64,000 nt of DNA from Methanobrevibacter sp. (GTDB lineage: Archaea > Methanobacteriota > Methanobacteria > Methanobacteriales > Methanobacteriaceae): contig JAFQXD010000016.1 in NCBI GenBank assembly GCA_017407115.1, positions 30,088-94,087 on the forward strand. Direction: 5' to 3'. The position numbers and the translations under genes were made by a program. Under the pieces are notes generated by a model. It worked only from the letters and a program-made list of their open reading frames with translations. It searched no databases and had not been told where the DNA came from. Numbering within the stretch: the stretch's first letter is position 1; the number at the start of each line of letters is the position of its first letter. Positions 5,864 to 34,515 of this stretch are shown here, piece by piece.

Positions 5864-6895
5864 ATGGGTGTACTACCAAAAGTCCAAGTGTTTAATAAAA
5901 TTAATCCTGTTAAAAGTAAACCTGGATTGGCATCTAAGATTGCAGTAATTGGGGCATTTGAAGAAGATATAACTGACCCTACATTATGCAAAACTCTTGA
6001 TGAAGCATATGAAAACTTAGGTGATGATACAACCTATAAAGGTGTATCTTGTTTAAAACATTTATTCTATGGTGCTTCAAGTGTTTTAGCTGTTAATATC
6101 ACTACTAAGACAGGTTCAGGAGAGAATATTACAATAGATAAAACTTTTACTCCAGCTAAATTAACATCTGCATTGGCTAAAATTAGTGGAGAAGATTATG
6201 ATATGTTATTTATTGCGGAGGTAATACCTACCACTTTAATAAACATTGTCACTGAATTTTTATCCAACCGTTATTTAAACAAATTACCAACTGGATATGT
6301 TTGTTATAGTGATTTTCAACCAGAAAGAGCAGGTGATTTCTGTTATGGATTACTTAATCAAAGATTAAGTGTTAATGATACATTATTATCTGATGTAGAC
6401 AGTGCAGCTTATTATTGTGGGCTTTTAGCAAGTTTGAATGTAGGAAATTCTATGACTATGAAAGTTGTTCCACAAGTAACTGGTGTATCACCTGAATTAT
6501 CTTTCGAAAACAGTGGAAACGGATTAGACTTGTTAGAATCTGGAATTACTACATTCAGATGTCTTGACCGTGGAAATAATCGTTATGTTGTTGTTAATAG
6601 TGAACAGCCAAATGGATTAGATTTATATATTAACCGTACTCGTGATTTTGTTGTAAAAGAAATGAGCCTACATCAATTTTTAGGTGATAGAAACAGGGTA
6701 GCAACTTTAAATGAGATTAAGCAAGAAGTTGACCGTGTCAAAGAAAGATGTGTTAAAACTTTGGATTTGCTTGAAGACATTGAATACACTGTTGAAAAGA
6801 AAAGCACTAGTTGTGTTGATATTAATATTACCAAATTGTTATTTGCTGGTATTATCACTGAAATTGATGTTTATATTACAATTGAGGTGGAATAG
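5864..6895 (+). CDS. Contractile tail sheath protein
   Basis: It is 343 aa and preceded by GGAGG. It lies directly upstream of a 131-aa tube-like ORF, the chaperone and the tape measure, which is the XkdK-XkdM-XkdN-XkdO order. Baseplate W/J genes downstream imply a myovirus tail. Confidence 0.6.
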   Translation: MGVLPKVQVFNKINPVKSKPGLASKIAVIGAFEEDITDPTLCKTLDEAYENLGDDTTYKGVSCLKHLFYGASSVLAVNITTKTGSGENITIDKTFTPAKLTSALAKISGEDYDMLFIAEVIPTTLINIVTEFLSNRYLNKLPTGYVCYSDFQPERAGDFCYGLLNQRLSVNDTLLSDVDSAAYYCGLLASLNVGNSMTMKVVPQVTGVSPELSFENSGNGLDLLESGITTFRCLDRGNNRYVVVNSEQPNGLDLYINRTRDFVVKEMSLHQFLGDRNRVATLNEIKQEVDRVKERCVKTLDLLEDIEYTVEKKSTSCVDINITKLLFAGIITEIDVYITIEVE

Positions 6896-7929: not shown

Positions 7930-10416
7930 ATGGCAGATAATGAATTAAACATTAAAATCAACACAGAAGCTGATAAAACAAATGTTGAAGATTTATCGTC
8001 TGCTATTGATAAACTAAAAGAAAATTCTGAAGAAGCATCACAAATTGCAACTTCAGCAATGGAAGATATAACGGATGCTGCTGAAGGTGTTTCTGTAGGA
8101 ATGGAAGATGCAAGTGAAAGTACCGAAGAATTAAATAGCTCTGTTGGAAGTCTTGACAGTTCCAATGTTGATGATGTAACTTCAAGTGTTGAAGAAGAAG
8201 CAAGTGCAACTGAAGATGCATCTGATTCTACTGAAGCTTTAAAGGTTACTATTGACAGTATTGATGCAACTGCAATTGCAGATTTAATTGAACAAATGGG
8301 AAATTATAAAACTTCAACTGATGATGCAAATGACAGTACAATGTCTTTAGTTGACGCTATGACAAGTGGTGCTGTTTCAGCCGGTATTACTGCAACTATA
8401 ATGACTTCAGCTTCAGCGGCTGGAAATTATCAAGACACAATGGTGCGTCTTGGTTATGCTTTAACAGGAACCAGTATGAGTTCTGAGCAAGCTGAACAAA
8501 GATTTGGCAGTATGATTTCAACAATGACTGAAGCAACTGGTAGAGGTGCCGGTTCAGCAAGAGCACATTTAATTAATATGGGTAATGTTGGAATTACAAC
8601 TGAAAAAACTTTAACTGAGAGTTTTAATGGTATTTCCAAAGCTTCTTTTCAAATGGGAAAACCTTTTGATACTTTAGAATCTTCTTTTCAGAAAATGACT
8701 TTGTCTGGTATGGCAAATAACAGGATGTTAGCAAACTTTGGTTTAAGTGCTGATGATTTGGCTAAAGCTATGGGTGTTTCTGCTGATGAAGTTAGTGATG
8801 CTTTTAAACAAATGGATGAAGATGGAAGAGCAATGGCTTTGTCAAATGCTCTTAATATGAAATATGGTGAAGATGTTAATGAAAATTATAAAAACAGTTT
8901 TGAACATTTAACCGAAGAGTTAGACAGGGCAAAGGATTATTTTATACGTGTTGCTGGTGAAGCATTACTTCCAACTTTAATCCCTGCAATTCAAACTGCT
9001 GCTGATACAGTCAACTTTTTTGCAAATACTTTTAGAAGTCTTCCAGGACCAATACAAAGTGTTATCGGTGGTGCTTTTGGTTTAGTTGGAGGATTGACTG
9101 CTGTTGGTTTGGGGGTTAATGCTGTTACAAAATTTGTTGGAAGTGCAATTTCACCATTTAGTAGTTTATGGAAATATTTCACCAATGTTCCAGATGGTCA
9201 GAATTTAACCAAATTTAGAAGTCATATTAATTCATTAAAAAATTCAGCTCAAACAGCTAAAGGGTATATGATTAGTTTTAAAAACACTTTAGTTGGTGTT
9301 GGACGTAGTGCTAAAGAAGCTGGTGTTTGGTTGTTAAATGCTGGTAAAAATGCACTGATAGCGGGTTATAATGCACTTAAATCTGCGGCCATGTGGGTTG
9401 TCGAAAAAGCTCAAAAATTAGCAAGTGCTGTAGCATCTAATGTTGCGGCGGCTGCTCAATGGTTACTAAATATTGCTATGAGTGCAAATCCGATCATGTT
9501 AGTTGTAATTGCAATTGTAGCTTTAATTGCTGTTTTAGGTTATCTTTACTTTAATAATGAACAGGTACGTAATGCTGTTAACAGTTTAGGTCAAGCATTC
9601 ATAAGTGTTGGTCAAATAATCTATACAAGTATTGTTAATGCTGTTGATTGGGTTATAGGTGCTTTGCAAAACTTATGGAATTATATTTTCACTTTAGGTG
9701 GTCTGCTCCCTGCAAATGTTAGTTTAACAGGTAATCAAATTATTGATACTGTATTAAGAGTTTTGATTTTTGTTGCAACACTACCAACTCAATTAGGAAT
9801 TATTTTTATCAATACCATTGCTAAAGTTTTAGGTTTTGGAAATAATTTTGTTCAAAGGATGTATTCTTCTGCTGTTAATTCTGTTTCTCGTTTTATGAGT
9901 CAAATTAGTCAATTACCTGGTAGATTGCAAAGTGAATTAAATAACATGCTGTCTGCTGTTGGAAGGTGGGCGGCCACATTACCTCAAAAATTTTGGGATG
10001 CTGGTGTAAATGCTGTTAAAAATTTCTTGAATGCATTAGGTATTCATTCTCCTGGTTTTATGCAAGTTAAGTTAATTAAAGAGATGGAGGATACTGGTGC
10101 AAGAATTCCAGATGCTAGTGAAGATTTAATTAAAAACGTAGGAATTGTTGGTGATGATGTAATTAAATCATTTGGTAATCCTAGCTTAAATGTTGGATTT
10201 AATGAATTAAAAGACCTTGAAAATAATAGTTTGGATTTTGTTAATAATGGCTTATTTGATGTTCTATCTGTCAGCAAAGACAATGAAACAGGTACAATTG
10301 TAAACCTCACATTAAATGTTGGTACTGTTGATAAAAAAGAGAGAGTTGATGAAATCATTGATGCTGTTCGTGAATACTTCTTATGGGATAATACAACAGC
10401 AGGGAGGACAGTATGA
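7930..10416 (+). CDS. Tail tape measure protein
   Basis: It is 828 aa, with an acidic N-terminus and central Ala/Gly-rich hydrophobic segments. It holds the canonical position after the chaperone. Confidence 0.8.
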   Translation: MADNELNIKINTEADKTNVEDLSSAIDKLKENSEEASQIATSAMEDITDAAEGVSVGMEDASESTEELNSSVGSLDSSNVDDVTSSVEEEASATEDASDSTEALKVTIDSIDATAIADLIEQMGNYKTSTDDANDSTMSLVDAMTSGAVSAGITATIMTSASAAGNYQDTMVRLGYALTGTSMSSEQAEQRFGSMISTMTEATGRGAGSARAHLINMGNVGITTEKTLTESFNGISKASFQMGKPFDTLESSFQKMTLSGMANNRMLANFGLSADDLAKAMGVSADEVSDAFKQMDEDGRAMALSNALNMKYGEDVNENYKNSFEHLTEELDRAKDYFIRVAGEALLPTLIPAIQTAADTVNFFANTFRSLPGPIQSVIGGAFGLVGGLTAVGLGVNAVTKFVGSAISPFSSLWKYFTNVPDGQNLTKFRSHINSLKNSAQTAKGYMISFKNTLVGVGRSAKEAGVWLLNAGKNALIAGYNALKSAAMWVVEKAQKLASAVASNVAAAAQWLLNIAMSANPIMLVVIAIVALIAVLGYLYFNNEQVRNAVNSLGQAFISVGQIIYTSIVNAVDWVIGALQNLWNYIFTLGGLLPANVSLTGNQIIDTVLRVLIFVATLPTQLGIIFINTIAKVLGFGNNFVQRMYSSAVNSVSRFMSQISQLPGRLQSELNNMLSAVGRWAATLPQKFWDAGVNAVKNFLNALGIHSPGFMQVKLIKEMEDTGARIPDASEDLIKNVGIVGDDVIKSFGNPSLNVGFNELKDLENNSLDFVNNGLFDVLSVSKDNETGTIVNLTLNVGTVDKKERVDEIIDAVREYFLWDNTTAGRTV

Positions 10417-11228
10417 GTTTTTTTAGTGTTATCGATGCTAGAGCAATTGGTTCTGGTGCTAAACCTATTAATTTAAAAGTTATTCAAGGGAATGGTGTTG
10501 AAGTTACACCAGATCTTGAGATTACTGTTAATAAATTGAATGCAGGTAACAAATCTTTTTTAAATAACGGTTATGGTGGAATAACATTTAAAATTGATGT
10601 AATAATCCATAAAGATGAAATGATAGTAAATAGCACTTTAGTTATCTCTAATAAGTGGAGCTATGGTTCAGGTAAAGTTATTGATTATTTACATGATTGG
10701 ATGACAACTTTAACCCCCGTTTATGTAGTTACAGATGCTATCGATATTCCAAATGGTAAATATATCATCACTAAAAATAGCAGTAGAAAACAATCTTACC
10801 GTAATTATACTGTCTGGACATTGGAATTTACTGAATTTAAAGGTATTAACATCACCCAATACAAAAATGACAATTCCTATGTTAATAAAGCTAAGAGTAA
10901 TTATGCAAAAGCTAAGGCAAAAGCTCGTAAACAAGCTCAAGCCAAGAAGAACAAAAAAGCAAAAGCAAACAATACTAACAAAAATAAGCTGAAAAAATGC
11001 AAATTAGCTAATCTGAAATATGGTTTAAAAAAGAGTACTTGTGTAAAATACATGCAAGCAGTGTTGTATAAGAAAGGTTACTTGACTAAAAAGCAGATTG
11101 ACGGTTGGTTTGGTCCTGTAACAAAAAACGCACTTAAAAAGTTCCAAAAAAAGTATCAGAAAAAATATAAACTAAAAATCAATGGTAAAGTCGATAATGC
11201 AACTTTAAAAGCATTAATTAATGTTTAA
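10413..11228 (+). CDS. Tail/baseplate protein with a C-terminal PG_binding_1 cell-wall-binding domain (XkdP position)
   Basis: The C-terminus (CVKYMQAVLYKKGYLTKKQIDGWFGPVTKNALKKFQKKYQKKYKLKINGKVDNATLKALI) fits the PG_binding_1 pattern. A Lys/Ala-rich linker precedes it. The start overlaps the TMP stop as ATGA. Confidence 0.7.
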   Translation: MSFFSVIDARAIGSGAKPINLKVIQGNGVEVTPDLEITVNKLNAGNKSFLNNGYGGITFKIDVIIHKDEMIVNSTLVISNKWSYGSGKVIDYLHDWMTTLTPVYVVTDAIDIPNGKYIITKNSSRKQSYRNYTVWTLEFTEFKGINITQYKNDNSYVNKAKSNYAKAKAKARKQAQAKKNKKAKANNTNKNKLKKCKLANLKYGLKKSTCVKYMQAVLYKKGYLTKKQIDGWFGPVTKNALKKFQKKYQKKYKLKINGKVDNATLKALINV

Positions 11229-11242
11229 TAAGGTGGTGGGCA

Positions 11243-13636
11243 ATGGCTGTTAGTAAAATTGTAGAAAAAATACATTATGATGTTAATCTTGTCCAAAACC
11301 AATCTTTTGTTTATGTTGGTAGATTACTCAATGCAAATTCAATGACTCTCAGTAAAGATTTTTGGAAGAACAATTTAAAGATTTATTGGTCAAAATATCA
11401 GATTAAAGAAACTGATATGAGGCAAAAAACAGCTTCTTTCACCAGCCCACATTACTTTGACCTAACTACTGGTTTATATGCTGTTTTAATAACATCACCT
11501 TATCATGAGGATTTTGGAGGCATCATATTATCTGTAGATTATGATAAATCAACTGGATTATATGATTATCAATGCCAAGACTTCAGTAGAAAGTACCAAA
11601 GCAAATTTAACTTAATTACAGTGAATAATACTAATTATGATTTATTAAGATTATTTTTAACTCAATTTGGCGCTAGTAATGGTAAAGGTAGAGTTTCAGC
11701 TAGTAAATTAAGTAAATACAATTATGTTCTCACAGGTTTAAGACCAAAACTTTATTATGATCAAGGAATTTGGGAAAACGGAATTAAGTTTAATCCAATG
11801 ACCAATGTTCAACAAATGGTCTTCCGGGATGTTTCATATATCGAAGCAATCCGTGATATAGTATTTAGTACAGGAGCCTATATTGATGTATATTTCAATA
11901 AATATGGCGTACTTCAAATAGAACCGTTTAGCAAACAAGATTGGTTAAGAAATGGTATTTATTTAACAACACCTGAATTAGCTAGTAGAAAATTCAAATT
12001 TGACACTACTAACATTATTACAGGAGTTATTGTTAATTCTGAAGACCGTTTAAGTTCCGGCAGATATTATTCAAGTACTAAACTTGTTCGATTAGATTTG
12101 GCTGCATTTTTCGGTGATTTAACAACTACTATTGATAATCCAAACAAAACAACTACATCTACAACCTCATCTTCTAAGACAGTTTCTACAAAAAAGTCAA
12201 CTAAAACAAATAAAAAAGAGGGAACTGGAATTACAGTATTCATGAATATTGATAATATTCATTCTAAAACAAAAGACAAAAAATTAATGAATGATATAGC
12301 AGGTTATCTTAAAAAAAGAGGTTATAAAGTTGAAATAGGTGGGGTTGGTCCTGGATATCATTATTCTCAAATAAATCGTGTGAAAAAGAACGGAATTTAC
12401 ATGTGTATCTATGGGGGAGCATGTGCTGGAACATTAAAAGAACATTGGTCCTCTAATCATTACAAAAGTGTTCTTAAAAAGAAAAATGCTAAAATGGTTG
12501 TTGCATTCTTATCACCACCTAGTACAAATATTCACAATTTAAAATGGCTGCCTCGTGCTCATGATGATAATTTCTCACCTAGAAGCTTTAAAGGTGTCAG
12601 TAATCCTGAACAACAACTATTAAATGCTGGAATTGGTGTTGTCATTGGTAAGAATGCAAAAGAAATTGCTACTAAATTCCCTAATTTCAAATCTTCTGCT
12701 AAAAAAACAACTTCAACTAAAAAAACAACAACAAAATCAACTACTCCAATTAACACTAATACTGCTAATTACATTAATAATGAAATGGCAAGTGCTACTA
12801 ATCGTTTAACTGAAAGTATCCGTGATTTATTATCCTTTAAACTAACATTACCATTAGGAAATCCATTACTCAAAAGATTACATACTAACATGTTTTTATA
12901 TACTGAATTACCTAATGATTTTGTCTTAGCAAATTTTTCTACACTTGCAGAAGTGTTAAACTCAACCTATAATCGTTATGTTGGTTATTCATTGAATAGG
13001 TGGTATGTTGAGGGTGTAACAATAACTAATGATGGTTCAAAGTTTGATGCAGAAATAGAGCTTAATCCGTTCCCTAGTAGCATTAAAAAATATCGTGAAA
13101 GTAGAATGAAATTGGAAGATGATTATAAATCAGCTTTACAATCCAATACTAGCAAAACTACAACCACAACTAAAAAATCAACTAAATCAACAAAAAATAG
13201 CACTTTAAAAGGTGGGGAAGGAAAAACAATTGATAATTTAGTTAAAAAGATTATTGGCTCAGAAACAAATGAATTGAAAAAAGCAAAGTTAATTCATGAA
13301 TGGTTGAGAAAAAATGTCAGATATGCTTACTATGAATGTACTAAGTACAATACACCTGAAAAATGTTATAAAAATAGAAGACATTTGAATTGTGCAGATA
13401 CAGCAAGATTAACTGCTAGTATGATGAGAAGTGCTGGATTAAAATGTTATATTGTTCACAGGACTTATAATGGTGGTCACTTCTGGACTATTATTGAAAT
13501 TAAAGGTAAAAAATATGCTAGTGATCAAACTGGTAATGGTTCAGCATTTAATACTGTTTGGGCAAGGTCAGGTAGAGTTAAAGTTTCTAACGGTGGTGCT
13601 TATTCAAGGAAAAATGGTAAAGTTCCTGATTGTTAA
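11243..13636 (+). CDS. Tail hub / baseplate central protein (XkdQ position) with a C-terminal transglutaminase-like cysteine peptidase domain
   Basis: It is 797 aa with three modules separated by Thr/Ser/Lys linkers. The C-terminus (LNCADTARLTASMMRSAGLKCYIVHRTYNGGHFWTIIEIKGKKYASDQT) gives a C717/H746/D761 spacing typical of transglutaminase-core folds. Confidence 0.65.
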   Translation: MAVSKIVEKIHYDVNLVQNQSFVYVGRLLNANSMTLSKDFWKNNLKIYWSKYQIKETDMRQKTASFTSPHYFDLTTGLYAVLITSPYHEDFGGIILSVDYDKSTGLYDYQCQDFSRKYQSKFNLITVNNTNYDLLRLFLTQFGASNGKGRVSASKLSKYNYVLTGLRPKLYYDQGIWENGIKFNPMTNVQQMVFRDVSYIEAIRDIVFSTGAYIDVYFNKYGVLQIEPFSKQDWLRNGIYLTTPELASRKFKFDTTNIITGVIVNSEDRLSSGRYYSSTKLVRLDLAAFFGDLTTTIDNPNKTTTSTTSSSKTVSTKKSTKTNKKEGTGITVFMNIDNIHSKTKDKKLMNDIAGYLKKRGYKVEIGGVGPGYHYSQINRVKKNGIYMCIYGGACAGTLKEHWSSNHYKSVLKKKNAKMVVAFLSPPSTNIHNLKWLPRAHDDNFSPRSFKGVSNPEQQLLNAGIGVVIGKNAKEIATKFPNFKSSAKKTTSTKKTTTKSTTPINTNTANYINNEMASATNRLTESIRDLLSFKLTLPLGNPLLKRLHTNMFLYTELPNDFVLANFSTLAEVLNSTYNRYVGYSLNRWYVEGVTITNDGSKFDAEIELNPFPSSIKKYRESRMKLEDDYKSALQSNTSKTTTTTKKSTKSTKNSTLKGGEGKTIDNLVKKIIGSETNELKKAKLIHEWLRKNVRYAYYECTKYNTPEKCYKNRRHLNCADTARLTASMMRSAGLKCYIVHRTYNGGHFWTIIEIKGKKYASDQTGNGSAFNTVWARSGRVKVSNGGAYSRKNGKVPDC

Positions 13637-13656: not shown

Positions 13657-14058
13657 ATGGAAGAAATAGTTGAATTAGGAACAGATTTAAATTGCAATTG
13701 GGAATTTAAAGATGGAGATTTACAATTAGTTGAAAATAAAGACAATCTCATACAATCCATTTTAAACAGGTTAAATTGCAATTATGATGGCTTAGATTTG
13801 TTCTATTATGAATATGGCAGTGTAATATCAAGTTTTCTTGGTTGGAAACATGATGATGAAACATTAGAGTTCATACGATTAGAAGTTGAAAGTACATTAG
13901 AACAAGAACCAAGATTAGACAATTTTAATGTTGAAGTGTCCTATAATAAAGTTGGTAAAGTTTTAATTGAATTATATTTCTTATTTAATGATGAAAGTGA
14001 TTTTACATTAAGTTTAGTGTTAGAAAAAGGTGGTGAGATAGTTGCCAGTGGAGAATGA
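13657..14058 (+). CDS. Baseplate wedge protein, gp25/W-like (XkdS-like)
   Basis: AAGGAGG lies upstream. The protein is 133 aa, and ...LEFIRLEVESTLEQEPRLDNFNVEVSY... resembles the GPW/gp25 motif. It lies directly before baseplate J. Confidence 0.55.
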   Translation: MEEIVELGTDLNCNWEFKDGDLQLVENKDNLIQSILNRLNCNYDGLDLFYYEYGSVISSFLGWKHDDETLEFIRLEVESTLEQEPRLDNFNVEVSYNKVGKVLIELYFLFNDESDFTLSLVLEKGGEIVASGE

Positions 14059-15211
14059 AAGTTTTTACAATCTAATTGGAGATGAAATTTCTCGTGAAAG
14101 CATTGTAGAAAAAATGATAGATTACTATAATGAAAAGTTAGAGCTTGGTGAAACTCGTGTAACTGATTTTAATGAAGGTTCAGAAATAAGAAACCTCTTA
14201 GAATCAATTGCTGTTGATTTATATGATTTAATGGAAGATAATTATGAAGCCACAAAAATTGCTTTTATATCAACCGCATATGGAGAATGGTTAGATTTAC
14301 ACGGAGAAAACCCATTAATCAATACTCCACGAGATACAGGTTCAGAAGCTGTTGGACTAGTAACTTTTACTATTCCAGTTGTTAGGGCAATGGATATTAT
14401 AATCCCAGAAGAAACAATACTTGTTTGTGAAGAGAATGATCTAGAATATGTTACTGACTCAGAAGCTGTTATCGTACCTGGAGAAACAAGTGTTGAAGTT
14501 TATTGTACTTGCTTAACTGTTGGAGAAGATGGAAATTGTAGTGCAAACACTATAACAATGATTGATGATGATAATATTGATAGTACAGTTGAAGTAACCA
14601 ATCCTGAAGCTTTTAGTGAAGGTAGTGATTATGAAGAAGATGATGATTACCGTGAAAGGCTTTTAAATGCTATCCGTATTGATAATTTTGGTAGTATTGG
14701 TTATTATCAAGAATTAGGTAATAATGTTGAAGGAGTTCATGATGTGTTATTAGTTGATGATGAAACATATACTCGTAAAATTATTGTTAATGGAGATGCG
14801 AAACCTGTTACAGAAGAAGTTTTAGTGAATGTTTTAAAAGAGTTCACTAGACCAGAAAATATAGTTTTAGGCCATAATTTTATAGTTGACTCTCCAGATT
14901 ATCTTGTTTTAAATTTACAATTGGATTTAATAGTAGAATATGAGTTTGAAGAGGATTTAATTATAAATAGGTTGCATTCATTCTTTGATGGTGGTATAAC
15001 AAGTGATGGTTATGATTTTAGCGGTTGTTTCATTGGCGAAACTTTAAATGAAACTTATCTATATTCCTGTTTGGAAAGTTTAGATGGGATTATAAGAGCT
15101 TCTGCTAGTATAAGTGGTAACCAATCAAATTTGAGTTCGCTCACTGTTAATAGTAATGAAGTAATTAAACTCGGTGATGTATTAATTAACCAAACATTAA
15201 TTGATGAATAA
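14042..15211 (+). CDS. Baseplate J-like protein
   Basis: It is 389 aa with a TTG start. Size, position and the ...YEEDDDYRERLL... region are typical of the baseplate J / XkdT family. Confidence 0.65.
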   Translation: MPVENESFYNLIGDEISRESIVEKMIDYYNEKLELGETRVTDFNEGSEIRNLLESIAVDLYDLMEDNYEATKIAFISTAYGEWLDLHGENPLINTPRDTGSEAVGLVTFTIPVVRAMDIIIPEETILVCEENDLEYVTDSEAVIVPGETSVEVYCTCLTVGEDGNCSANTITMIDDDNIDSTVEVTNPEAFSEGSDYEEDDDYRERLLNAIRIDNFGSIGYYQELGNNVEGVHDVLLVDDETYTRKIIVNGDAKPVTEEVLVNVLKEFTRPENIVLGHNFIVDSPDYLVLNLQLDLIVEYEFEEDLIINRLHSFFDGGITSDGYDFSGCFIGETLNETYLYSCLESLDGIIRASASISGNQSNLSSLTVNSNEVIKLGDVLINQTLIDE

Positions 15212-19325: not shown

Positions 19326-21830
19326 ATGACTAATAGAACATTAACAGATGAAATAATCACTTTAATTCAAAGCGAAGCTAATAACAATCCTGCACCAAAA
19401 CCATGTAAAATAATTGGTAATTATGGTGAAACACCATATTCTGATGTTGAAATTGAGGATTTGGGGAAATTAATTCATAAAAAAACAATAGGTAGTACAA
19501 AAATAGGTTTGGAAGGGATTATTTGTTTTTTGAATGGTAATTTAAGTGATGGTGTTGTTATAACCTATGATGAATCAAGTATTCCTGAAATATTGTCTTT
19601 TTATCAAAAGAATACAATTGATTTGGTATATGCACTTGAAAATTATGGTAAAACTTCAAATAATGAATATTATTTATTTAGAGGTGATTGCTGGACAATT
19701 AACAATAATTTTGAAGCAAGTGCATCCATTACAAGTCGATCTGACAAGGATTTAAAAGTTACTGGAACTTTTCGTACACAAAATGATATTGTAGGATTAT
19801 ATTGGAATTCCAAAGATTTGATAGAACATCCTTATATTAGTTATGGTACTGTTAATGATTATTCTAATGTTATTTTAAGTTTCGATTATGAAATGACTGG
19901 TTGTAAAGACTTTTCAAATGGAACTATAAGTATTACAATTGGAAAAACTGATGGTTCAATATATTATTTAACCATGAACCGTTTTATTGAAAATAATCAT
20001 GTAACTATTGATTTTAGTAATCTTACATTATTAACCGGGAATATTTACATTGATGCAACTGGGGAGGAAATAACTGTTACTGAAACAACACCTCTTGATG
20101 TAACTGATATAGAATACATAATGTTTGTACTTGTTCCTCCTAATTATGTTGAAAACAAAGAACAGTACACCATTATTGATAATCTTGATTTTACATGTGA
20201 AATGTCAAATATTGAAGTTTCCAATGGCAAAATCCGTAATGAATTTATAATATTGGAATCTCATGAATATAGGTTATGTGAGGGTTATGATGATATTTAC
20301 AATTTAAATCCTCGTAGAATTTGTAAGGAAATGAGAAAACTCGGTTATACTGATTGGGTGGATTTATATGTTGGAGCTTCACATTTTTATGAAAAAAGTG
20401 GGATTGTTGGAGATATTATAAATATTGATGAAAATTCATTTAATCATAATCAAACTGAAAAAATGGTTTTAAATCCAAAAATACCTTTAAATAAAGCATT
20501 TATTAGTTGGTTAGATTGTTATTCTCGTGAATTAAAAGAGAATGGTACTGATAAACTCATTATTAGTGTTTCAATGGAAAATTTGCAATGTCCTGCAAGT
20601 TGGAGGCAAAAAACTAGTAGTGGAGATTATGCTTTAACTGGTTGGACACCATCTACATTCTTTTACAGTCCTTGCAACAATGAAGTTGTTGATTACATGG
20701 AATCAGTTAGTGAAAAATGTTTAGATATTGTTGTAGCAAATGGTTTACAACCTATTCTTCAAATGGGTGAGGCTTGGTGGTGGTGGAATGAAAATGACAA
20801 GCCAAATCAGCCGCCTTGTTTCTATGATGATGCGACTAGAAATAAATATTATAATACCTTTGGAGATTACATTCCTGAGTATTCTACATCATCTGAAGTG
20901 TACGATGAAGAAGTTACATCTTGGCTAAATCAACAACTTGTTAATTATAGTGATAAATTAAGAGGGGTTGTTAAAGACTCAAAATATGATAATGGTTTGT
21001 ATATGGCTTTATTTTTCCCACCTAGTGTTACTGATGTTGACAGAGTACCACCTATGATGAGAGAAGTAAACTATTTGAGAAAAGCATATGATCCATTGAA
21101 ATTAGATGTCCTTGAACTTGAAGATTATGATTGGGTTACTGGTGAAAGTAAGCACCATGATGAAGTATACTCTCTAGGAAATGAATTAGGATTTAGTGAA
21201 GATAGATTACATTATTATGGTGGTTTTGTTCAATATCCTGAAGATGCTCCGAAATTTTGGAATTTAATTTCAAAATCAATGGAGACTGCAATAAATAAGA
21301 AATTCAAAGAAGTCTTTGTTTGGGCTGGTTCTCAAGTGAGAAGAGATAGTAAATTCATAGGGCATTATTCTTTTGAGTTAATTCAAAGATTATTGGATTT
21401 AATTCCTGAAGTAAAATCTTATGATGATACAAATCTTAAGTCTAGGATAACTGCTTTAGAAAAGCAATCTTCATCTGTTGATACTGGTTGGGTTGATTTG
21501 AGTTTAACTGGTAATTTTTATAATTTTGATTCAAATAATCGTGTTCAATATCGTAAAGTTGGAAGTGATGTTCAAATCACTGGTCTTCCAGTACTTAATG
21601 CATATCCATCTGCATTAACTGAATTAATCATTGGAACATTACCTGAGGGTTTTAGACCAATCCGTGATGTTTCACATGTTTGTGAGTTAAAAGATGATGA
21701 TAAATTATGGACTTGTACAGTAAAATCTAATGGTGATGTAACATTTAACCGTTTACGTGATAATACAGGATTTGTTGCTGGAACAGCATTTGCAGACGTT
21801 TTAAAATTAAATGTAACATTTCTAATATAA
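19326..21830 (+). CDS. Large tail fibre / receptor-binding protein candidate
   Basis: It is 834 aa and is the last structural ORF before the lysin. A central Trp-rich region (MGEAWWWWNENDKPNQPPCFYDD) may be TIM-barrel-like, and there is a C-terminal beta-rich module. The function is inferred from position. Confidence 0.45.
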   Translation: MTNRTLTDEIITLIQSEANNNPAPKPCKIIGNYGETPYSDVEIEDLGKLIHKKTIGSTKIGLEGIICFLNGNLSDGVVITYDESSIPEILSFYQKNTIDLVYALENYGKTSNNEYYLFRGDCWTINNNFEASASITSRSDKDLKVTGTFRTQNDIVGLYWNSKDLIEHPYISYGTVNDYSNVILSFDYEMTGCKDFSNGTISITIGKTDGSIYYLTMNRFIENNHVTIDFSNLTLLTGNIYIDATGEEITVTETTPLDVTDIEYIMFVLVPPNYVENKEQYTIIDNLDFTCEMSNIEVSNGKIRNEFIILESHEYRLCEGYDDIYNLNPRRICKEMRKLGYTDWVDLYVGASHFYEKSGIVGDIINIDENSFNHNQTEKMVLNPKIPLNKAFISWLDCYSRELKENGTDKLIISVSMENLQCPASWRQKTSSGDYALTGWTPSTFFYSPCNNEVVDYMESVSEKCLDIVVANGLQPILQMGEAWWWWNENDKPNQPPCFYDDATRNKYYNTFGDYIPEYSTSSEVYDEEVTSWLNQQLVNYSDKLRGVVKDSKYDNGLYMALFFPPSVTDVDRVPPMMREVNYLRKAYDPLKLDVLELEDYDWVTGESKHHDEVYSLGNELGFSEDRLHYYGGFVQYPEDAPKFWNLISKSMETAINKKFKEVFVWAGSQVRRDSKFIGHYSFELIQRLLDLIPEVKSYDDTNLKSRITALEKQSSSVDTGWVDLSLTGNFYNFDSNNRVQYRKVGSDVQITGLPVLNAYPSALTELIIGTLPEGFRPIRDVSHVCELKDDDKLWTCTVKSNGDVTFNRLRDNTGFVAGTAFADVLKLNVTFLI

Positions 21831-21851: not shown

Positions 21852-22841
21852 ATGATTAAGAAAAATGAAATCAAAAAGATAGCGGATGCTATCAAAAATT
21901 ATGTTGTAAAAAACAAGAAAATACCAACTTCAATTGAAGTTAGTAATGTAAAACATAGTAAAAATGAATGTTTATACATATTAAGTTATGCTATAAACCA
22001 TCTAAATGAAGACATTGAAGTTAAATCAATTAAAAATGCCGGTGAACCGGTCAGCACTATTATTAATGAAAAAATTTATGAATCTGACTATAAAGACCAG
22101 GCCAAAAGATTAACTCAATATCTAAAACAAAATGCTAAAGCACCGAATTACATTAAATCTGTTAAATCTAAGACTTTGATTTCTCCTGATTTAGAGTTAT
22201 TTGCATTTGCAAAAATAATTTCTTATTATTATGCAAATAAAAGGCTGCCTAAATATTGTTCTTATAATTCAAATGATTTGAAAACCACTGTCAAATCTAA
22301 AAAAAATAATTGCAGTAATCCGTATAAATCATCTCCACATCCAACTAAAAGCGGTTGTGATGCAATGGGACAAAATACTGGTTATTATTGTGGAGTTTGT
22401 GCACTGCAACATTCATTGTTTAAATTTGGAATATATGTTTCTCAAAGTCAATTAGCATCTTGGGCCGGAACAACTTCAAGTGGGACTTCTCATCAAGGAA
22501 TTAGAACAGCTGTTGCAATGGTGAATAAAAAATACAATGTAAACATAACTGTTGAAGAGAAAAGTTTCAGTGATTTAGGTTTGGAAGGTCTTGCAAAACT
22601 AATCTGCAAAGATAATGTTGATATTATAACTCATATTTTGTACCGTCTTAAATGGGGGCATTATGAGTCTATTAATGAAATAAATATCAAAACCAAGATG
22701 CTTAAAATCTTAAACTCACTTGGAAACAAATGCTCAGGCAGTTGCTATTGTGGTTATGTTGAAGACAGATCACTAGCTTTGGAAAAACAATACTTCAGCG
22801 GAATTAGTCAAAAATCAATAATTATTTTAACAAAAAATTAG
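21852..22841 (+). CDS. Endolysin: pseudomurein-binding repeats plus a papain-fold cysteine peptidase (Pei-like pseudomurein endoisopeptidase candidate)
   Basis: Three N-terminal repeats end in (K/R)xPxY/S (KNKKIPTSIEV, QNAKAPNYIKS, ANKRLPKYCSY), as in PMBR units of PeiW/PeiP. The C-terminal domain has GYYCGVCALQHSL (C180) and KWGHYESI (H270). Confidence 0.7.
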   Translation: MIKKNEIKKIADAIKNYVVKNKKIPTSIEVSNVKHSKNECLYILSYAINHLNEDIEVKSIKNAGEPVSTIINEKIYESDYKDQAKRLTQYLKQNAKAPNYIKSVKSKTLISPDLELFAFAKIISYYYANKRLPKYCSYNSNDLKTTVKSKKNNCSNPYKSSPHPTKSGCDAMGQNTGYYCGVCALQHSLFKFGIYVSQSQLASWAGTTSSGTSHQGIRTAVAMVNKKYNVNITVEEKSFSDLGLEGLAKLICKDNVDIITHILYRLKWGHYESINEINIKTKMLKILNSLGNKCSGSCYCGYVEDRSLALEKQYFSGISQKSIIILTKN

Positions 22842-23842: not shown

Positions 23843-24085
23843 GTGATTTCTGTGTATGGTTTTAATTTCATTATCCGAGATGAAATGAGAATTTCATTAT
23901 TCATTGATAAAAATGACAAATTTTACCATTACTATAATGGTAAATGGGGTTATGATTTGATAATGGATGAAACAGATTTGCTAATTCTCTTTGGTCGGGA
24001 CTATATAATTAATCTTGTTAAATCAATGAGGGTTTATGAAACAGTACAGCTATCTGATTTAGTAAAATTAGTTAGGTTTCAGTGA
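23843..24085 (+). CDS. Hypothetical small protein
   Basis: It is 80 aa with a GTG start (an alternative ATG lies at 23885). No motif was recognised. Confidence 0.3.
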   Translation: MISVYGFNFIIRDEMRISLFIDKNDKFYHYYNGKWGYDLIMDETDLLILFGRDYIINLVKSMRVYETVQLSDLVKLVRFQ

Positions 24086-24213
24086 TTTTTTATCATATCT
24101 CTAAATCGAATTCTTCCAGTTTCAAATTAAATCTTAAGTTTGAATAAATTCTGAAGATATTTTGAATAGTTACTGAAATTCAATTTATATACTGAATTTT
24201 ATAAAATAATATT

Positions 24214-24366
24214 ATGGCTATATTAAGTGTCGAAGTTTTAAAGAAAATTATTGAAAACGTTCCTGAAGATTATACTGTTGAATATGAAAATCAAAAAACT
24301 ACTGCTCCATTAGCTGATAAGGTTGAAATTGATGTCAGTGGTAAAAGAATTATATTGAAAAAGTAA
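24214..24366 (+). CDS. Hypothetical small protein (50 aa)
   Basis: The ORF is MAILSVEVLKKIIENVPEDYTVEYENQKTTAPLADKVEIDVSGKRIILKK. It falls below the track cutoff and is the last ORF before the non-coding junction. Confidence 0.3.
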   Translation: MAILSVEVLKKIIENVPEDYTVEYENQKTTAPLADKVEIDVSGKRIILKK

Positions 24367-24464
24367 ACTCTCATATTTTATGTAATTTAAATCTGCATTT
24401 CAATTATATATGTTATTAGATTACATAAATGTTAATTGGTACTATAGGAAAAAAGGTTCAGAAG

Positions 24465-24501
24465 TGGAGGATTTATTTCCTCCATTATTTTTATTGTTTT
24501 T
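24465..24501 (+). terminator. Hairpin plus T-tract terminator candidate at the provirus end
   Basis: There is a 7-bp stem, TGGAGGA (24465-24471) paired with TCCTCCA (24478-24484), with a 6-nt loop. It is followed by TTATTTTTATTGTTTTTT. Confidence 0.4.
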
Positions 24502-24902
24502 TATCTCGGAAATTTTTGTCATTTTTTTTATGAATTTTCTTATTTTTGTGTAGTTAATTATATTACAGATTACTGATATAGAACATGATATACGGTCATG
24601 ATAATTAAATTATTTTTTAAGAATATGTTGGGAATATTTTTAAATTTTAATGGTGTAAAAAATTAAAATGGTTTAATATTTTGTGGCTGAAATTTAGTTT
24701 ATTAGACTGTTAAATTTGTTCGTTTCTATGATTACGAACATTTATTATTATGAAAAATAAGGTCATATAAGGCGTTTTTTGAAAACAATCTAAAAACAGT
24801 TAGTAATCTTCACACTAGTGACCACCATATCACAACTAATTTTTTTCTTTTTTTCAAAACTATTAAATATTTTAACGAATAACCTTATTTGTAGGTATTA
24901 TT

Positions 24903-25892
24903 ATGAATGGAAAAATAATTTTAGGACTTCCAAAAGGAAGTTTAAACAATGTAAAACGAGGAAATACTTATCAGTTGTTTGTTGATGCAGGTTATGAAGT
25001 TAAAGGATACGAACCTGGCGATGAATCTTATGAAATTGAAATCTTGAATGACAGCGACATCATTGCATTTTTAACCCGTCCGCAATCCACTCCTGTAGAA
25101 CTCAACAGGGGAATGGTTGACATTGCTATTGTAGGTGAAGACTGGATTAAGGAAGAATCAGTTTTGAGAAAATCAAACACCATTAAAATAGGGGATTTGG
25201 ATTATGGAAAGACACGTTTGATAGTTGCTGTTCCTAAAGAAGCACCATATGATAATTTATCCGACTTTTTCAAAGCAAATAAAGACAGAAAAACTCCAAT
25301 ATTATGTTTCACTGAATATCCAAATTTAACCAGGAAATTCATAATGGAAAATGAAGTGTATCAGGAAATATATGGCGATGCAGTACCGTTTGTCCAAGTT
25401 AGAGGTTTGACTGACGGTGATAATGAGATGGTGCAGGTTATCAACTCAGACGGTGCTACTGAAGTTTATATTGCTAAAGGAGCTGACTTTATTGTTGACA
25501 ATACTCAGACAGGAAGCAGCCTCAGAAAAGCAGGTTTAAAGGAAATAGAAACAATATTGCATTCCTCAGCAGGCCTTTATGCAAGCGGAAGCTGCAGTGA
25601 AGAAAAGCTTGAAAAGGCCAAAATGGTTTATGAGCAGTTATTGGGTGCAATTACTGCTAAAAAATACTTCGATGTCAAGTTCAACATTGCAAATTCCAAA
25701 ATCGATGAGGTTTCAAGTTATTTGATTGACAATAAGCTTTGTGCAGATGAACCTACAATCACTCAGGGTTCTGATTTCTCACAAATCAACGTATTGATTC
25801 CTAAAGCAAAATTCCCTGAGATGGTTGATGCGATTAAGGGATTCGATGCAACTTCAATTATTAGAAATGATTTAAAACAGTTGGTTGAATAA
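24903..25892 (+). CDS. hisG: ATP phosphoribosyltransferase, long form (HisG family)
   Basis: The sequence shows [56 protein letters not shown] and [19 protein letters not shown], which match the HisG pattern. A C-terminal regulatory-like domain is also present. Confidence 0.6.
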
Positions 25893-26021
25893 TCATTTCA
25901 CTTTCTATTTTTTTTAAACATTGTTCAATATTGAAAAAATATCTATCATGATAAATCGTTAACATTTATAAAGTATGCCTTACATAAATTAAAATATTAG
26001 TTTATAAAATGGGGATTAAAC

Positions 26022-26924
26022 ATGTTAACATCTGTTCAAAAAGAAATTTTACAAACCTTGATTAATCTATACCAATCTTCAGATGGAAAATCCATTAAAG
26101 GTGAAGATATTGCTGAGGTCATGGCTAGAAATCCGGGAACAATACGTAACCAGATGCAATCATTGAGAAGTTTGGGTTTAGTTAAAGGAGTACCTGGCCC
26201 TAGAGGTGGTTACAAGCCAACAATTGAAGCTTACCACTCTTTAAACATATCAGTTTCTGATGAGGATTCCAAAGTTCCTATTTATAAAAATGACGAGAGA
26301 TTGGATGATGTCTCTGTTGCAAAAATAGAATTCACGAGCGTTCCCCAGCCAAGTGAATGTGAAGCTGCAATTAAAGTTTTGGGAAGCATCAAGGATTTGA
26401 ATTTAGGTGATGTCATTAAAATAGGTCCGACACCTGTAAACAACCTTGGAGTTATGGGTGAAATTGTTGGACGTGATGATATGGATAATATTCTTCTAGT
26501 AAATACCAAAACCATCAGAAGCATCCCAAAACAGACTGTAGGAGATATTGCAAGCCGTAATGTAATATCCTTTAAGATGGATTGCAACATAAAGGATGCA
26601 GCTAAAAAATTAACCTTCAATGAAATTGACGGCGCTCCAGTCATGAAAGATGGAAAAGTTGTTGGTGTATTCACCGTAACAGATCTTGTAAAGGCAATAG
26701 CGCAGGATAATGAGGATAAGACTGTCGGTGAATTGATGTCCACAAATGTTGTTATTGTCAATGAAGATTTAAAAATAGCTAATGCTATTGATGTTATGCT
26801 TAAAAAGTCAATCTCCAGATTAATTATAGCTGATAATGACAATAACCTGTTAGGTATTGTTACAAGAACAGATTTAATTGACAGCATTACCAATCTTAAA
26901 CAATTCCCAATAATTACTAATTAA
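26022..26924 (+). CDS. CBS-domain protein with an N-terminal winged-helix DNA-binding domain
   Basis: The N-terminus has an HTH-like segment (EDIAEVMARNPGTIRNQMQSLRSLGLVKG). The C-terminus has a CBS pair (DGAPVMKDGKVVGVFTVTDLV; SRLIIADNDNNLLGIVTRTDLI). Confidence 0.75.
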   Translation: MLTSVQKEILQTLINLYQSSDGKSIKGEDIAEVMARNPGTIRNQMQSLRSLGLVKGVPGPRGGYKPTIEAYHSLNISVSDEDSKVPIYKNDERLDDVSVAKIEFTSVPQPSECEAAIKVLGSIKDLNLGDVIKIGPTPVNNLGVMGEIVGRDDMDNILLVNTKTIRSIPKQTVGDIASRNVISFKMDCNIKDAAKKLTFNEIDGAPVMKDGKVVGVFTVTDLVKAIAQDNEDKTVGELMSTNVVIVNEDLKIANAIDVMLKKSISRLIIADNDNNLLGIVTRTDLIDSITNLKQFPIITN

Positions 26925-26939
26925 TTTTCAAGTGATTTA

Positions 26940-27863
26940 ATGAAAGTAAACCAAATCAGTGTAGATAAGAATATGTCTGTATCAGATTTATTGAATCAAT
27001 TCGATCAATCTGGTGTTTTAGGAGCAGGAAGAGTGGCTCGCGCATGCAATATATTGGTAGATATGATTCAGGATGAGGATATGAATGTATTTTTAAGTCT
27101 TGGAGGTCCTTTAATCCCTGGGGGGATGAGAAATATAGTAACTAATATGATAAATGAAGGGCATGTAAATTTAATTGTTTCAAGTGGGGCCAATATCACT
27201 CATGATTTGGTTGAAGCATTTGGTGGTTCTCATTATCGACATGAAGGAAAGGATGATGAAGAATTGAATGAAGAAGGAATAGGTAGAATTGCAGACATTA
27301 ATGTGGGATCTGATGATTTTACAATCTTTGAAAGTGAAATAACTAAAATATTCGAAAAGATATCCGAAAAGAAAAAGGTTATTTCAATTCAGGAATTGCT
27401 TCATGAGATTGGCCTTTTAGTTGAAGATGAAAACTCATTTGTAGCTACTGCTGCTAGAAATAATGTGCCAATATTTGCACCGGGGTTAATTGACTCTATG
27501 ATGGGTCTTCAGTTGTGGATATTTTCACAGGACCATGACCTTACGGTAAGTGCTGCGGGGGACATGCCATTACTGTCTGATATTGTATTCGGTTCCAAGA
27601 AAGTTGGGGCAATACTTTTGGGTGGAGGCCTTACAAAACATTATACCTTAGCTTCTAATGTTATTACTGGAGGTCTTGATGCTGCTATTCAAATTACGAT
27701 GGACAGGCCTGAGGCAGGCAGTTTAGGTGGAGCTCCTCTCGAAGAGGCAAAATCATGGGCAAAAGCAAGATGCGGCTCTAGTTTGGCTAGTGTTGTCGGT
27801 GATGTTACGGTTATATTTCCATTGATTTATGCTGCAGCCCTAGATAAAATCAGTTGTGATTAA
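26940..27863 (+). CDS. dys: Deoxyhypusine synthase
   Basis: It is 307 aa. GAGRVARACNIL, LSLGGPLIPGGMRN, SSGANITHD and GGGLTKHY fit the archaeal DHS pattern. Confidence 0.8.
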   Translation: MKVNQISVDKNMSVSDLLNQFDQSGVLGAGRVARACNILVDMIQDEDMNVFLSLGGPLIPGGMRNIVTNMINEGHVNLIVSSGANITHDLVEAFGGSHYRHEGKDDEELNEEGIGRIADINVGSDDFTIFESEITKIFEKISEKKKVISIQELLHEIGLLVEDENSFVATAARNNVPIFAPGLIDSMMGLQLWIFSQDHDLTVSAAGDMPLLSDIVFGSKKVGAILLGGGLTKHYTLASNVITGGLDAAIQITMDRPEAGSLGGAPLEEAKSWAKARCGSSLASVVGDVTVIFPLIYAAALDKISCD

Positions 27864-28391
27864 ATGAGTTATATAATTTTAGCCTTATTATTTATTTTAT
27901 CTGGATTTTTCATGAAATTTTCAGATGATTTGTTCGATGTTAATGATAATTTAGCTTTTGCAAGTGTTTTTGGTGTTTTTTGTGGGATTGCATCTGCGCT
28001 GGCTTCAGTTTATAGTTTTGAAGCAGCTTATATTTTTTTAGCTATTTTAATTGGAAATTTAATTGCTCTTAAAGTTGATGGGATGCACCATATAATTACA
28101 TTAATAATTTTCATAGTTATCTTGCTTGTTGGAGGAATTCCTGACTTAAGTTTGGTAGTTTTATTGATATGTATTTTAGCAGCATTGTCTGATGAAATAG
28201 GTCATGAACTAATCTCAAAAGTTACTCAAAATAAGTTTTTAAATCTGTTTTTTGAATATAGATTTGTGATGAAAATAGTGATATTATTGCTTGCGGTTTG
28301 CGGCGTATTTGATTTTTGGATATTCTTGTGTTTTATTTTGTTTGAAATATCCTATGAAACTGCAGGAATTTTGTTTGAAAGTTTCAATTAA
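27864..28391 (+). CDS. Integral membrane protein, unknown function
   Basis: It is 175 aa with about 5 hydrophobic helices. Its start abuts the dys stop. Confidence 0.5.
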   Translation: MSYIILALLFILSGFFMKFSDDLFDVNDNLAFASVFGVFCGIASALASVYSFEAAYIFLAILIGNLIALKVDGMHHIITLIIFIVILLVGGIPDLSLVVLLICILAALSDEIGHELISKVTQNKFLNLFFEYRFVMKIVILLLAVCGVFDFWIFLCFILFEISYETAGILFESFN

Positions 28392-33490: not shown

Positions 33491-33838
33491 ATGTTGTTAT
33501 ATTCTTTAATATTTCCGATTATTTCTTTAATAGCTATTGTGGGAATTGTATTAAGATACATGAAAAGAAAAAATTCCTTCACTACAGTCATTTTATGGTC
33601 AATATTTTGGATTTTCGTCAGTGTATTTGCACTTTTCCCAAATCTAAGTACTTCATTTGCAAGCGCTTTTGGTATAACTCGTGGTTTGGATTTTGTAATT
33701 ATTTTAGTATTTATCATATTGTTCTACATTGCTTTAAAACTATACTTCATTGTTGATAAGATGCAAAATGACCTAAATAAGATTGTTAAAGAGGTTGCAA
33801 TTCAAAATGAAATCACTCTTGATGATGAAGAGGAATAA
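33491..33838 (+). CDS. Small membrane protein (DUF2304-like) partnered with GT2
   Basis: It is 115 aa with 3-4 TM helices and lies immediately downstream of the GT2 gene. Confidence 0.5.
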   Translation: MLLYSLIFPIISLIAIVGIVLRYMKRKNSFTTVILWSIFWIFVSVFALFPNLSTSFASAFGITRGLDFVIILVFIILFYIALKLYFIVDKMQNDLNKIVKEVAIQNEITLDDEEE

Positions 33839-33843
33839 TTATC

Positions 33844-34515
33844 ATGTTGTATTTTAGAGGATGCACTGCACGAGAAAAGCAGACAGGCATTGGCGAAGCG
33901 ACAGAACGACTTCTTGAGATTGCAGGAGTTGATTTCCACACGTTGGATGATGAAAAATGTTGTGGGTCTGTTTTGCTTAGAACTGGTTTTATTGATGAGG
34001 CCAAAGAGCAGATAGAAAATAATACTGAAATTCTTAAAGGCGAAAAAATCATCACTTCCTGTGCAGGATGTTATAAGACATTGAAGGATGATTATGAAGG
34101 TTTGGATGTTATTCACATTTCACAACTTTTAGATGAATTAATCAAAGAAGGGAAAATTAGATTATCCAAAAAGGATTTGGATGTTACATATCATGATTCA
34201 TGTCATTTGGGCCGTCACTGCAATGTTTTTGATGAGCCTAGAGATGTCATTAAATCAGTAGCTAATCTTGTTGAAATGGAAAATATCCGTGAAAACAGTT
34301 TGTGCTGCGGTGCTGGTGGTGGTGTCAAATCTGCTTATCCTGAAATTGCAAACCAGATGGCATCTTCAAGGATTGCACAGGCAAAGGAAACAGGTTGTAA
34401 TATATTAATCACTCCATGTCCGTTCTGTAAGCTTAATTTGGAAAATGACGATTTGGAAGTTTTGGATTTGACTGAATTTTTAATGAAATATGGTGAGATA
34501 GATGAAACCCAGTGA
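33844..34515 (+). CDS. Cysteine-rich (CCG) domain Fe-S oxidoreductase subunit, LutA/HdrB-like
   Basis: Two CCG-type motifs are present (KCCGS...SCAGCY and LCCGAGGG...PCPFC). Confidence 0.7.
   Translation: MLYFRGCTAREKQTGIGEATERLLEIAGVDFHTLDDEKCCGSVLLRTGFIDEAKEQIENNTEILKGEKIITSCAGCYKTLKDDYEGLDVIHISQLLDELIKEGKIRLSKKDLDVTYHDSCHLGRHCNVFDEPRDVIKSVANLVEMENIRENSLCCGAGGGVKSAYPEIANQMASSRIAQAKETGCNILITPCPFCKLNLENDDLEVLDLTEFLMKYGEIDETQ

Follow-up and report, generated by a model that had tools for sequence, protein, structure and literature searches.

A transglutaminase-like domain on the baseplate hub of a Methanobrevibacter provirus, a candidate enzyme for crossing the pseudomurein wall at infection

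Lactococcal-phage Tal proteins, the T4 gp5 lysozyme and V. cholerae VgrG3 are known cases of hub-borne enzymes or tail lysins. PeiW and PeiP are pseudomurein endoisopeptidases, characterized by hydrolysis of the epsilon(Ala)-Lys isopeptide bond, and enzymes of the Pei type are the only ones known to cut this archaeal wall. PeiW and PeiP possess a transglutaminase-like Cys-His-Asp triad and require reducing conditions (PMC2989375). Pei enzymes are treated solely as endolysins in the reports on MSTV1 (PMC11375127) and the human-gut archaeal virome (PMC9800368), in the PeiR papers and in work on viral lytic proteins (PMC12596118), and a 2024 review on how archaeal viruses enter and leave their hosts ties pseudomurein enzymes only to egress (PMC10791045). 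The window analyzed here, a stretch of 64,000 nucleotides (nt) from Methanobrevibacter sp. (contig JAFQXD010000016.1), contains from base 1 to ~23,800 the late region of a myovirus-type provirus. One gene of this region encodes a protein of 797 amino acids (aa), a baseplate hub that ends in a transglutaminase-like domain, and this domain is, as judged from its sequence, a strong candidate tool for crossing the pseudomurein wall at infection. A search of the accessible literature found no description of a virion-associated pseudomurein hydrolase, in agreement with the first-pass annotation of the locus, and no mention of methanogen-virus tail proteins bearing a Pei-like or transglutaminase-like domain; the compendium containing the human-gut virus vir080 may hold an earlier mention.

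The gene, the domain and its predicted catalytic residues are located as follows (positions are those of the window).

11243..13636, + strand: open reading frame of the baseplate hub fused to the transglutaminase-like domain, 797 aa.
13220..13633, + strand: transglutaminase-like cysteine-peptidase domain, aa 660-797, recognized by PF01841, AlphaFold2 (AF2), Foldseek and profile searches.
13391..13393, + strand: predicted nucleophile C717, motif LNCAD, aligned with the NCTD Cys of PeiP and PeiW and with the Cys of 3isr.
13478..13480, + strand: H746, motif GHFW, aligned with the GHY of PeiP and PeiW.
13523..13525, + strand: D761, motif YASD, aligned with the Asp of 3isr.

The first-pass annotation, made from the letters of the sequence, had quoted this C-terminus correctly and placed the triad where it is found, at C717 (nt 13391, a position it gave itself), H746 (nt 13478) and D761 (nt 13523). 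Its assignment to the transglutaminase core is borne out far beyond chance by Pfam: in the whole protein, Transglut_core (PF01841) matches aa 665-755 with E 1.3e-11 and 45.1 bits, the gathering score being 23, and the domain scanned alone reaches 48.6 bits (E 1.1e-12). The transglutaminase-like DUF553 also matches aa 663-763 (E 7.7e-8). The AF2 model of aa 649-797, built from 22 sequences, has a predicted local distance difference test score (pLDDT) of 94.6 and a predicted TM-score of 0.91. Its best folds in the PDB, identified with Foldseek, are 3isr (4e-6), 3kd4, CPR-C4 (7ob6, 7pjo), LapG (4u65), TglA and TgpA, so that structure and profile searches alike indicate a catalytic family with a confidently modeled transglutaminase-like protease fold. 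By score, triad and predicted fold, the C-terminal domain is a member of the transglutaminase-like superfamily with a papain-like alpha+beta core. A single-sequence search of the PDB sequences with the domain alone returned nothing meaningful, where the profile search did work, and a word-indexed protein search with the domain alone returned solely fragments of the same family.

The triad is conserved, as the first-pass annotation would lead one to expect. Among full-length homologues the Cys is present in 59/59, and the His and the Asp each in 57/59; in the two proteins lacking His and Asp in register (P0046 and P0047) the domain is a variant that resembles Transglut_core weakly, and the residues are shifted. 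Invariance is confined to the columns N716, C717, H746 and D761 in 19 sequences that are 23-31% identical to the query and include a protein of an unrelated virus. An alignment of 22 diverse sequences agrees on the same four invariant positions, and Cys, His and Asp are likewise invariant in 66 more distant relatives. An invariant N-C...H...D at about 25% identity would be the signature of retained catalysis.

The presumed link to pseudomurein comes from the relatives of the domain. When a hidden Markov model (HMM) of the hub domain was searched against all 177,635 distinct PDB sequences, PeiP ranked first (9.3e-6), 3isr second (1.4e-5) and PeiW third (1.9e-5). In the profile alignments LNCAD falls on INCTD and GHFW on GHYF or GHYL, and the alignment with 3isr also carries the Asp. 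Comparison of the domain profile with the Peptidase_C71 (Pei) alignment by hhalign gave a probability of 94.6% (E 6.9e-8, 74 columns). PeiP (8z4f, 8e-4) and PeiW (8jx4, 1.3e-3) were also found by Foldseek in the PDB, PeiP of psiM2 among predicted viral structures (BFVD, 2e-4), and the annotated Pei-like ORF48 of Methanobacterium virus PhiF1 by tblastn (2e-4). The kinship to PeiP and PeiW proposed in the first-pass annotation, whose statement on the triad of these enzymes agrees with the literature (PMC2989375), thereby stands: at the level of profile alignment the hub domain is demonstrably homologous to their catalytic cores, with Cys and His in register. The 66 nearest cellular relatives of the domain contain Transglut_core in 64/66 cases and pseudomurein-binding repeats (PMBR) in 38/66, and 22/66 also match Peptidase_C71; many carry Ig-like domains as well. 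Such proteins are known as group III adhesin-like proteins of Methanobrevibacter and Methanosphaera (PMC11532034).

The remainder of the protein consists of the following parts.

11291..12151, + strand: hub N-terminal domains, aa 17-303, gp27 / Mu gp44 / VgrG-like by Foldseek, AF2 pLDDT mostly >90.
12152..12217, + strand: disordered Thr/Ser/Lys-rich linker, aa 304-325, pLDDT <50.
12218..12694, + strand: inserted alpha/beta domain, aa 326-484, pLDDT about 85-90.
12695..12763, + strand: disordered Thr/Ser/Lys-rich linker, aa 485-507, pLDDT <50; break point of the split-gene forms.
12764..13150, + strand: C-terminal hub domain, aa 508-636, seen by Foldseek and by BLAST of aa 500-645.
13151..13219, + strand: Thr/Ser/Lys-rich tether of low complexity, aa 637-659, pLDDT <50 at aa 637-650.

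The first 650 residues belong to no sequence family in Pfam, PHROGs or NCBIfam. The AF2 model of the full protein (alignment of 40 homologues, mean pLDDT 81.5) comprises three folded blocks, aa 17-303, 326-484 and 508-636, parted by low-pLDDT segments. Foldseek matched it to central baseplate hubs in the PDB at probability 1.00, led by the Algoriphagus extracellular contractile injection system (7aef_q, 1.3e-9) and followed by a Neisseria prophage tail protein (3d37, 3e-9), the Anabaena contractile injection system, the S. aureus phi812 hub (9euf_E), diffocin, Mu gp44 (1wru), VgrG, the PVC spike, the pyocin R2 hub and T4 gp27; the tail-associated lysin of phage NF5 (9m7n) was matched too. Target-normalized TM-scores against 3d37, 1wru and 3cdd were 0.57-0.63. 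Because alignments to hubs of ~325 aa stretch across about 620 query columns, the hub fold is probably formed by aa 17-303 together with aa 508-636, with aa 326-484 inserted between them. The inserted domain has conserved D337, G367xG369, H373 and a 'RAHDDNFSP' motif. Its Foldseek matches are weak and Rossmann/flavodoxin-like, and neither Pfam and NCBIfam nor the PDB profile search nor tblastn against phages assigned it to a family. This insertion may represent a second module of the hub, enzymatic or host-facing.

The genes surrounding the hub gene are those of a contractile-type baseplate.

5864-6895: weak sheath match, late region of the provirus.
7930..10416, + strand: tape measure protein, PHROG tape-measure families.
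10413..11228, + strand: 271-aa baseplate protein in the XkdP/LysM position, C-terminal PG_binding_1 (PF01471, E 1.6e-12).
13657..14058, + strand: gp25-like baseplate wedge protein, PHROG 975 and 261, Pfam GPW_gp25 below threshold.
14042..15211, + strand: Baseplate J-like protein, PF04865 (E 1e-27) and PHROG 6 (E 4.8e-50).
21852..22841, + strand: PeiR-type endolysin with three pseudomurein-binding repeats and Peptidase_C39, 8.2 kb downstream of the hub gene.

The order of tape measure, LysM-slot protein, hub and then the gp25-like and J-like wedge genes recurs in three further loci, one in Methanobrevibacter sp. GCA_045611865.1 (L003) and two on metagenome contigs (L006 and L007). By fold and gene position, the 797-aa protein is, in the model, a central baseplate hub of the gp27/Mu gp44 class. 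The tail-hub identity given by the first-pass annotation is thus supported, and so is its architecture of a hub with a C-terminal module; it had overlooked the four-module mosaic and the forms split into two genes. The placement of the domain at the 'tip of the injection machinery' was not borne out; the domain sits on a disordered linker of ~20 residues and no spike gene is evident between the hub gene and the gp25-like gene.

Homologues of the whole 797-aa protein number 343 at E<=1e-5, all of them unnamed or annotated as 'hypothetical protein.' When 1.84 billion representative proteins were searched exhaustively with an HMM of the domain alone, 11,066 relatives reached E<=1e-3, 731 of them E<=1e-10, and in nearly all of the matches listed the domain is C-terminal. 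The best 150 matches fall into four groups: hub fusions like the window protein; many proteins of 290-310 aa consisting of the hub domain corresponding to aa 508-636 and the transglutaminase-like domain; proteins of 340-430 aa like vir080_00051; and cellular proteins. The second group is also reached from the hub side, as BLAST of aa 500-645 matched the N-termini of many 290-310-aa transglutaminase-domain proteins. Hub homologues of ~490 aa stop at query aa 479-486, near residue 480, because the remainder is encoded by a separate gene of ~295 aa. In L003, L006 and L007 the split order is tape measure, PG_binding_1 protein, short hub, transglutaminase-domain protein of 290-303 aa, gp25-like protein and Baseplate_J. 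The window gene is thus the fused version of these two adjacent genes. The enzyme module is never missing, being fused or encoded by the next gene in 4/4 informative contexts, and the catalytic domain physically resides in a virion structural protein, in the same open reading frame as the hub or, in the split forms, fused to its last domain.

The domain is not confined to hubs of this type. In vir080 (Caudoviricetes sp., BK063677, a human-gut Methanobacteriales virus) the 355-aa protein vir080_00051 ends in the same domain. Close relatives were found on four IMG/VR viral contigs and in M. smithii (WP_404809081.1, 'hypothetical protein,' within a cluster of 134 sequences). M. smithii is the main human-gut methanogen. 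A scan of the GTDB species-representative genomes with the window protein gave one match, an 85%-identical hub on a 64-kb contig (L009; JAFRCC010000006.1, 36121-46466) of a goat-ileum metagenome-assembled genome labeled 'Clostridia bacterium.' This contig is probably a mis-binned Methanobrevibacter contig, a reading adopted because the cellular genes of the window itself cluster with Methanobrevibacter sp. One relative, P0175 (1284 aa), is an even larger fusion: its hub and transglutaminase-like domain follow an additional N-terminal stretch of ~500 residues that contains an MG4 macroglobulin-like domain.

Identities to the window protein, calculated per domain, are decoupled. In P0007 and P0023-P0031 the hub is 80-90% identical and the transglutaminase-like domain 62-67%; the reverse applies to P0038, P0040, P0050, P0051 and P0053, with hubs at 47-54% and transglutaminase-like domains at 72-82% (example pairs of hub and domain identity are 90%/67% and 49%/80%). 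The insertion is decoupled likewise: in P0042 it is 81% identical and the hub 46%. Therefore the modules between the low-complexity linkers recombine independently. Such independent exchange of modules, as read from the sequences, would be a pattern typical of host-facing tail parts.

The first-pass reading passed each of the computational checks that it had called for, and the comparative data strengthen it. The best explanation of these data, and one that we regard as reasonably probable, is a hub-borne enzyme that cuts pseudomurein cross-links at infection. Hubs of the gp27 class are trimers, and about three peptidase domains, each held on a flexible tether of about 20 residues, would be expected at the center of the baseplate, a stoichiometry taken from the hub class. 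The domain would be retained in the virion; upon docking, and possibly upon sheath contraction, the thiol enzyme would locally hydrolyze peptide or isopeptide cross-links of pseudomurein, opening a hole for the tail tube. The PG_binding_1 protein encoded next to the hub may help to keep the baseplate in place on the wall, and in the strictly anoxic gut or rumen the catalytic thiol would stay reduced. Lysis of the host at the end of the cycle would be left to the unrelated PeiR-type (C39) endolysin.

Several points weigh against a pseudomurein-cutting function. The transglutaminase-like superfamily includes transamidases, PNGase and adhesin-cleaving proteases such as LapG, and the closest structural matches of the domain are 'putative' proteases whose substrates are not known. 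Peptidase_C71 (PF12386, cut-off 22 bits) does not match the hub domain even at E<=10, whereas PeiP scores 318 bits, and the 797-aa protein contains no pseudomurein-binding repeats (PF09373). Membership of Peptidase_C71 was rejected on these two grounds, leaving a relation of homology only. The supporting text of PMC2812497 proposes host transglutaminase-like proteins with PMBR as pseudomurein cross-linking enzymes, not hydrolases. No spike gene was identified, and the reading as a whole draws on computation.

Foremost among the competing explanations, and itself unlikely, is a protease directed at proteins, which would clip adhesin-like proteins of the host in the manner of LapG or else process virion proteins such as the hub or the tape measure at assembly or at ejection. 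Generic transglutaminase-like cysteine proteases, LapG (4u65) and CPR-C4 included, do head the list of structural matches, and yet by sequence profile PeiP and PeiW rank ahead of the LapG-type enzymes. Adhesin-like proteins cover Methanobrevibacter surfaces (PMC2812497, PMC11532034) and would offer a substrate; the nearest relatives of the domain are, for their part, tied to pseudomurein-binding repeats, and a module that is swapped independently is not what an internal role in assembly would lead one to expect.

Less probable still, the domain would serve as an auxiliary lysin at egress, attacking the wall from within beside the PeiR-type endolysin, and would be joined to a structural protein only incidentally. 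The first-pass annotation had pointed to a separate lysis gene 8 kb downstream, and this is the endolysin gene at 21852-22841, 8.2 kb away and unrelated to the hub domain: comparison of the domain with this C39 endolysin revealed no similarity. With peptidases from two families, a virus could attack different bonds of a single wall. Against a role in egress, the domain is fused to, or encoded beside, a structural hub domain in every relative examined, it lies again within the baseplate module in vir080, and the 797-aa protein is devoid of PMBR.

The fold and triad are those of transglutaminases, and the cross-linking of pseudomurein has itself been proposed to be transglutaminase-catalyzed (supporting text of PMC2812497). 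The domain might on these grounds be a transamidase, linking the tail to Lys/Glu side chains of pseudomurein for irreversible adsorption or cross-linking virion proteins. This is very improbable, as PeiP and PeiW, the characterized relatives closest in sequence, are hydrolases, which favors the hydrolytic direction for the hub domain. To our knowledge there is no precedent for a tail-to-wall transamidase. A bolder version deserves just as little credence: beyond cutting, the hub would staple the baseplate to the wall by acyl transfer on pseudomurein stem peptides, and the insertion (D337, H373, 'RAHDDNFSP') would provide a second new wall-modifying activity, together forming a two-enzyme device with no bacterial counterpart. 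The least probable alternative, a non-catalytic binding or receptor-recognition module that keeps the protease-like fold, has in its favor a mosaic exchange resembling that of receptor-binding proteins and conflicts with Cys, His, Asp and the preceding Asn being the sole invariant positions at about 25% identity.

For the passage of tailed archaeal viruses through the pseudomurein wall at infection, the hub-borne domain now offers a concrete, widespread and testable candidate. The module occurs in many Methanobrevibacter proviruses, including some in M. smithii. In concept it corresponds to what one would expect as the archaeal analogue of a familiar phage device; it seems not to have been described so far, and it is widespread in viruses of gut and rumen methanogens. 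Enzymes acting from outside are the kind wanted to lyse or permeabilize rumen and gut methanogens for methane mitigation, DNA delivery and fluorescence in situ hybridization, uses in which PeiW, PeiP and PeiR are already employed, and the swapped natural subtypes of the domain represent a ready panel of candidate specificities.

Cellular genes (HisG, IMPDH, PurF and others) begin at 24.9 kb of the window and fall in 90%-identity clusters named Methanobrevibacter sp.; the host therefore has a pseudomurein wall. A bacterial origin of the window was weighed as well and discarded. Among the listed late-region proteins of the provirus, an XkdF-type protease is encoded first. A megablast search of the phage collection with the provirus gave no match. 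The 271-aa PG_binding_1 protein occupies the slot of the XkdP/LysM proteins of PBSX-like tails, and its gene is kept directly upstream of the hub gene in L003, L006, L007 and L008. PG_binding_1 (10413-11228) is a bacterial-type domain, though the host wall is pseudomurein and not murein; the protein may be a wall-binding partner of the hub, with pseudomurein as a possible ligand. After Baseplate_J and before the endolysin are encoded fibre-like proteins with Ig-like domains and then a TIM-barrel protein. The latter (834 aa, 19326-21830), directly before the endolysin, matches the N-terminal and TIM-barrel domains of the 'non-contractile tail sheath protein' (E 1e-67), and this in a virus whose baseplate is of the contractile type. 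TIM-barrel proteins are frequently glycosidases. In the host part of the window, a 2372-aa protein (44431-51549) comprises DUF4011, a superfamily-1 helicase (AAA_11/AAA_12), an MTES_1575 restriction-endonuclease-like domain and DUF3320, with UvrC encoded next; it may be a defence or repair helicase-nuclease.

Two proteins of Methanobacterium virus Drs3 (L005) were also considered. Its 'pseudomurein-binding repeat protein' (33520-34422) consists of PMBR and Transglut_core, with Peptidase_C71 below threshold; therefore transglutaminase-like endolysins exist. The Drs3 'prominin' tape measure (23909-28120) gave a weak structural match in BFVD and has no transglutaminase-like domain according to Pfam, and was not counted.

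Relative to PeiP of virus psiM2 (8z4f) and PeiW of psiM100 (8jx4), the hub domain has a homologous catalytic domain with Cys and His in register; both sides are predicted or known thiol enzymes, and all are encoded by viruses of pseudomurein-walled methanogens. In contrast to PeiP and PeiW, it falls in Transglut_core and not in Peptidase_C71, is not preceded by N-terminal pseudomurein-binding repeats, differs in His-to-Asp spacing, and is part of a structural hub, whereas PeiP and PeiW are soluble endolysins. The provirus's own PeiR/C39 endolysin is a third type, unlike PeiP and PeiW. The nearest cellular relatives, the group III adhesin-like proteins with Ig-like, PMBR and transglutaminase-like domains (PMC11532034), share the C-terminal position of the domain; these are anchored in the host membrane, lie at the cell surface and bear binding repeats, and the viral domain is found on a baseplate hub instead. 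The protein vir080_00051, annotated as 'hypothetical protein,' has the same domain with the invariant N-C...H...D and is encoded, like the hub, between tape measure and baseplate genes, on a different carrier of 355 aa unrelated to the hub.

Like the phage tail-associated lysins (NF5, 9m7n; phi812 hub, 9euf_E), the locus combines a gp27-type hub bearing a predicted wall-degrading domain with a separate egress endolysin, and the hub gene is near the tape measure gene, here with the PG_binding_1 gene between them. Unlike those phages, the virus infects an archaeon and would attack pseudomurein, and a transglutaminase-like domain takes the place of lysozyme, M23, CHAP or NlpC/P60. A disordered tether is present instead of the beta-helical spike of phage hub enzymes, and an extra domain is inserted in the hub. 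By analogy, the hub fusion would be the archaeal counterpart of the tail-associated lysins of bacteriophages.

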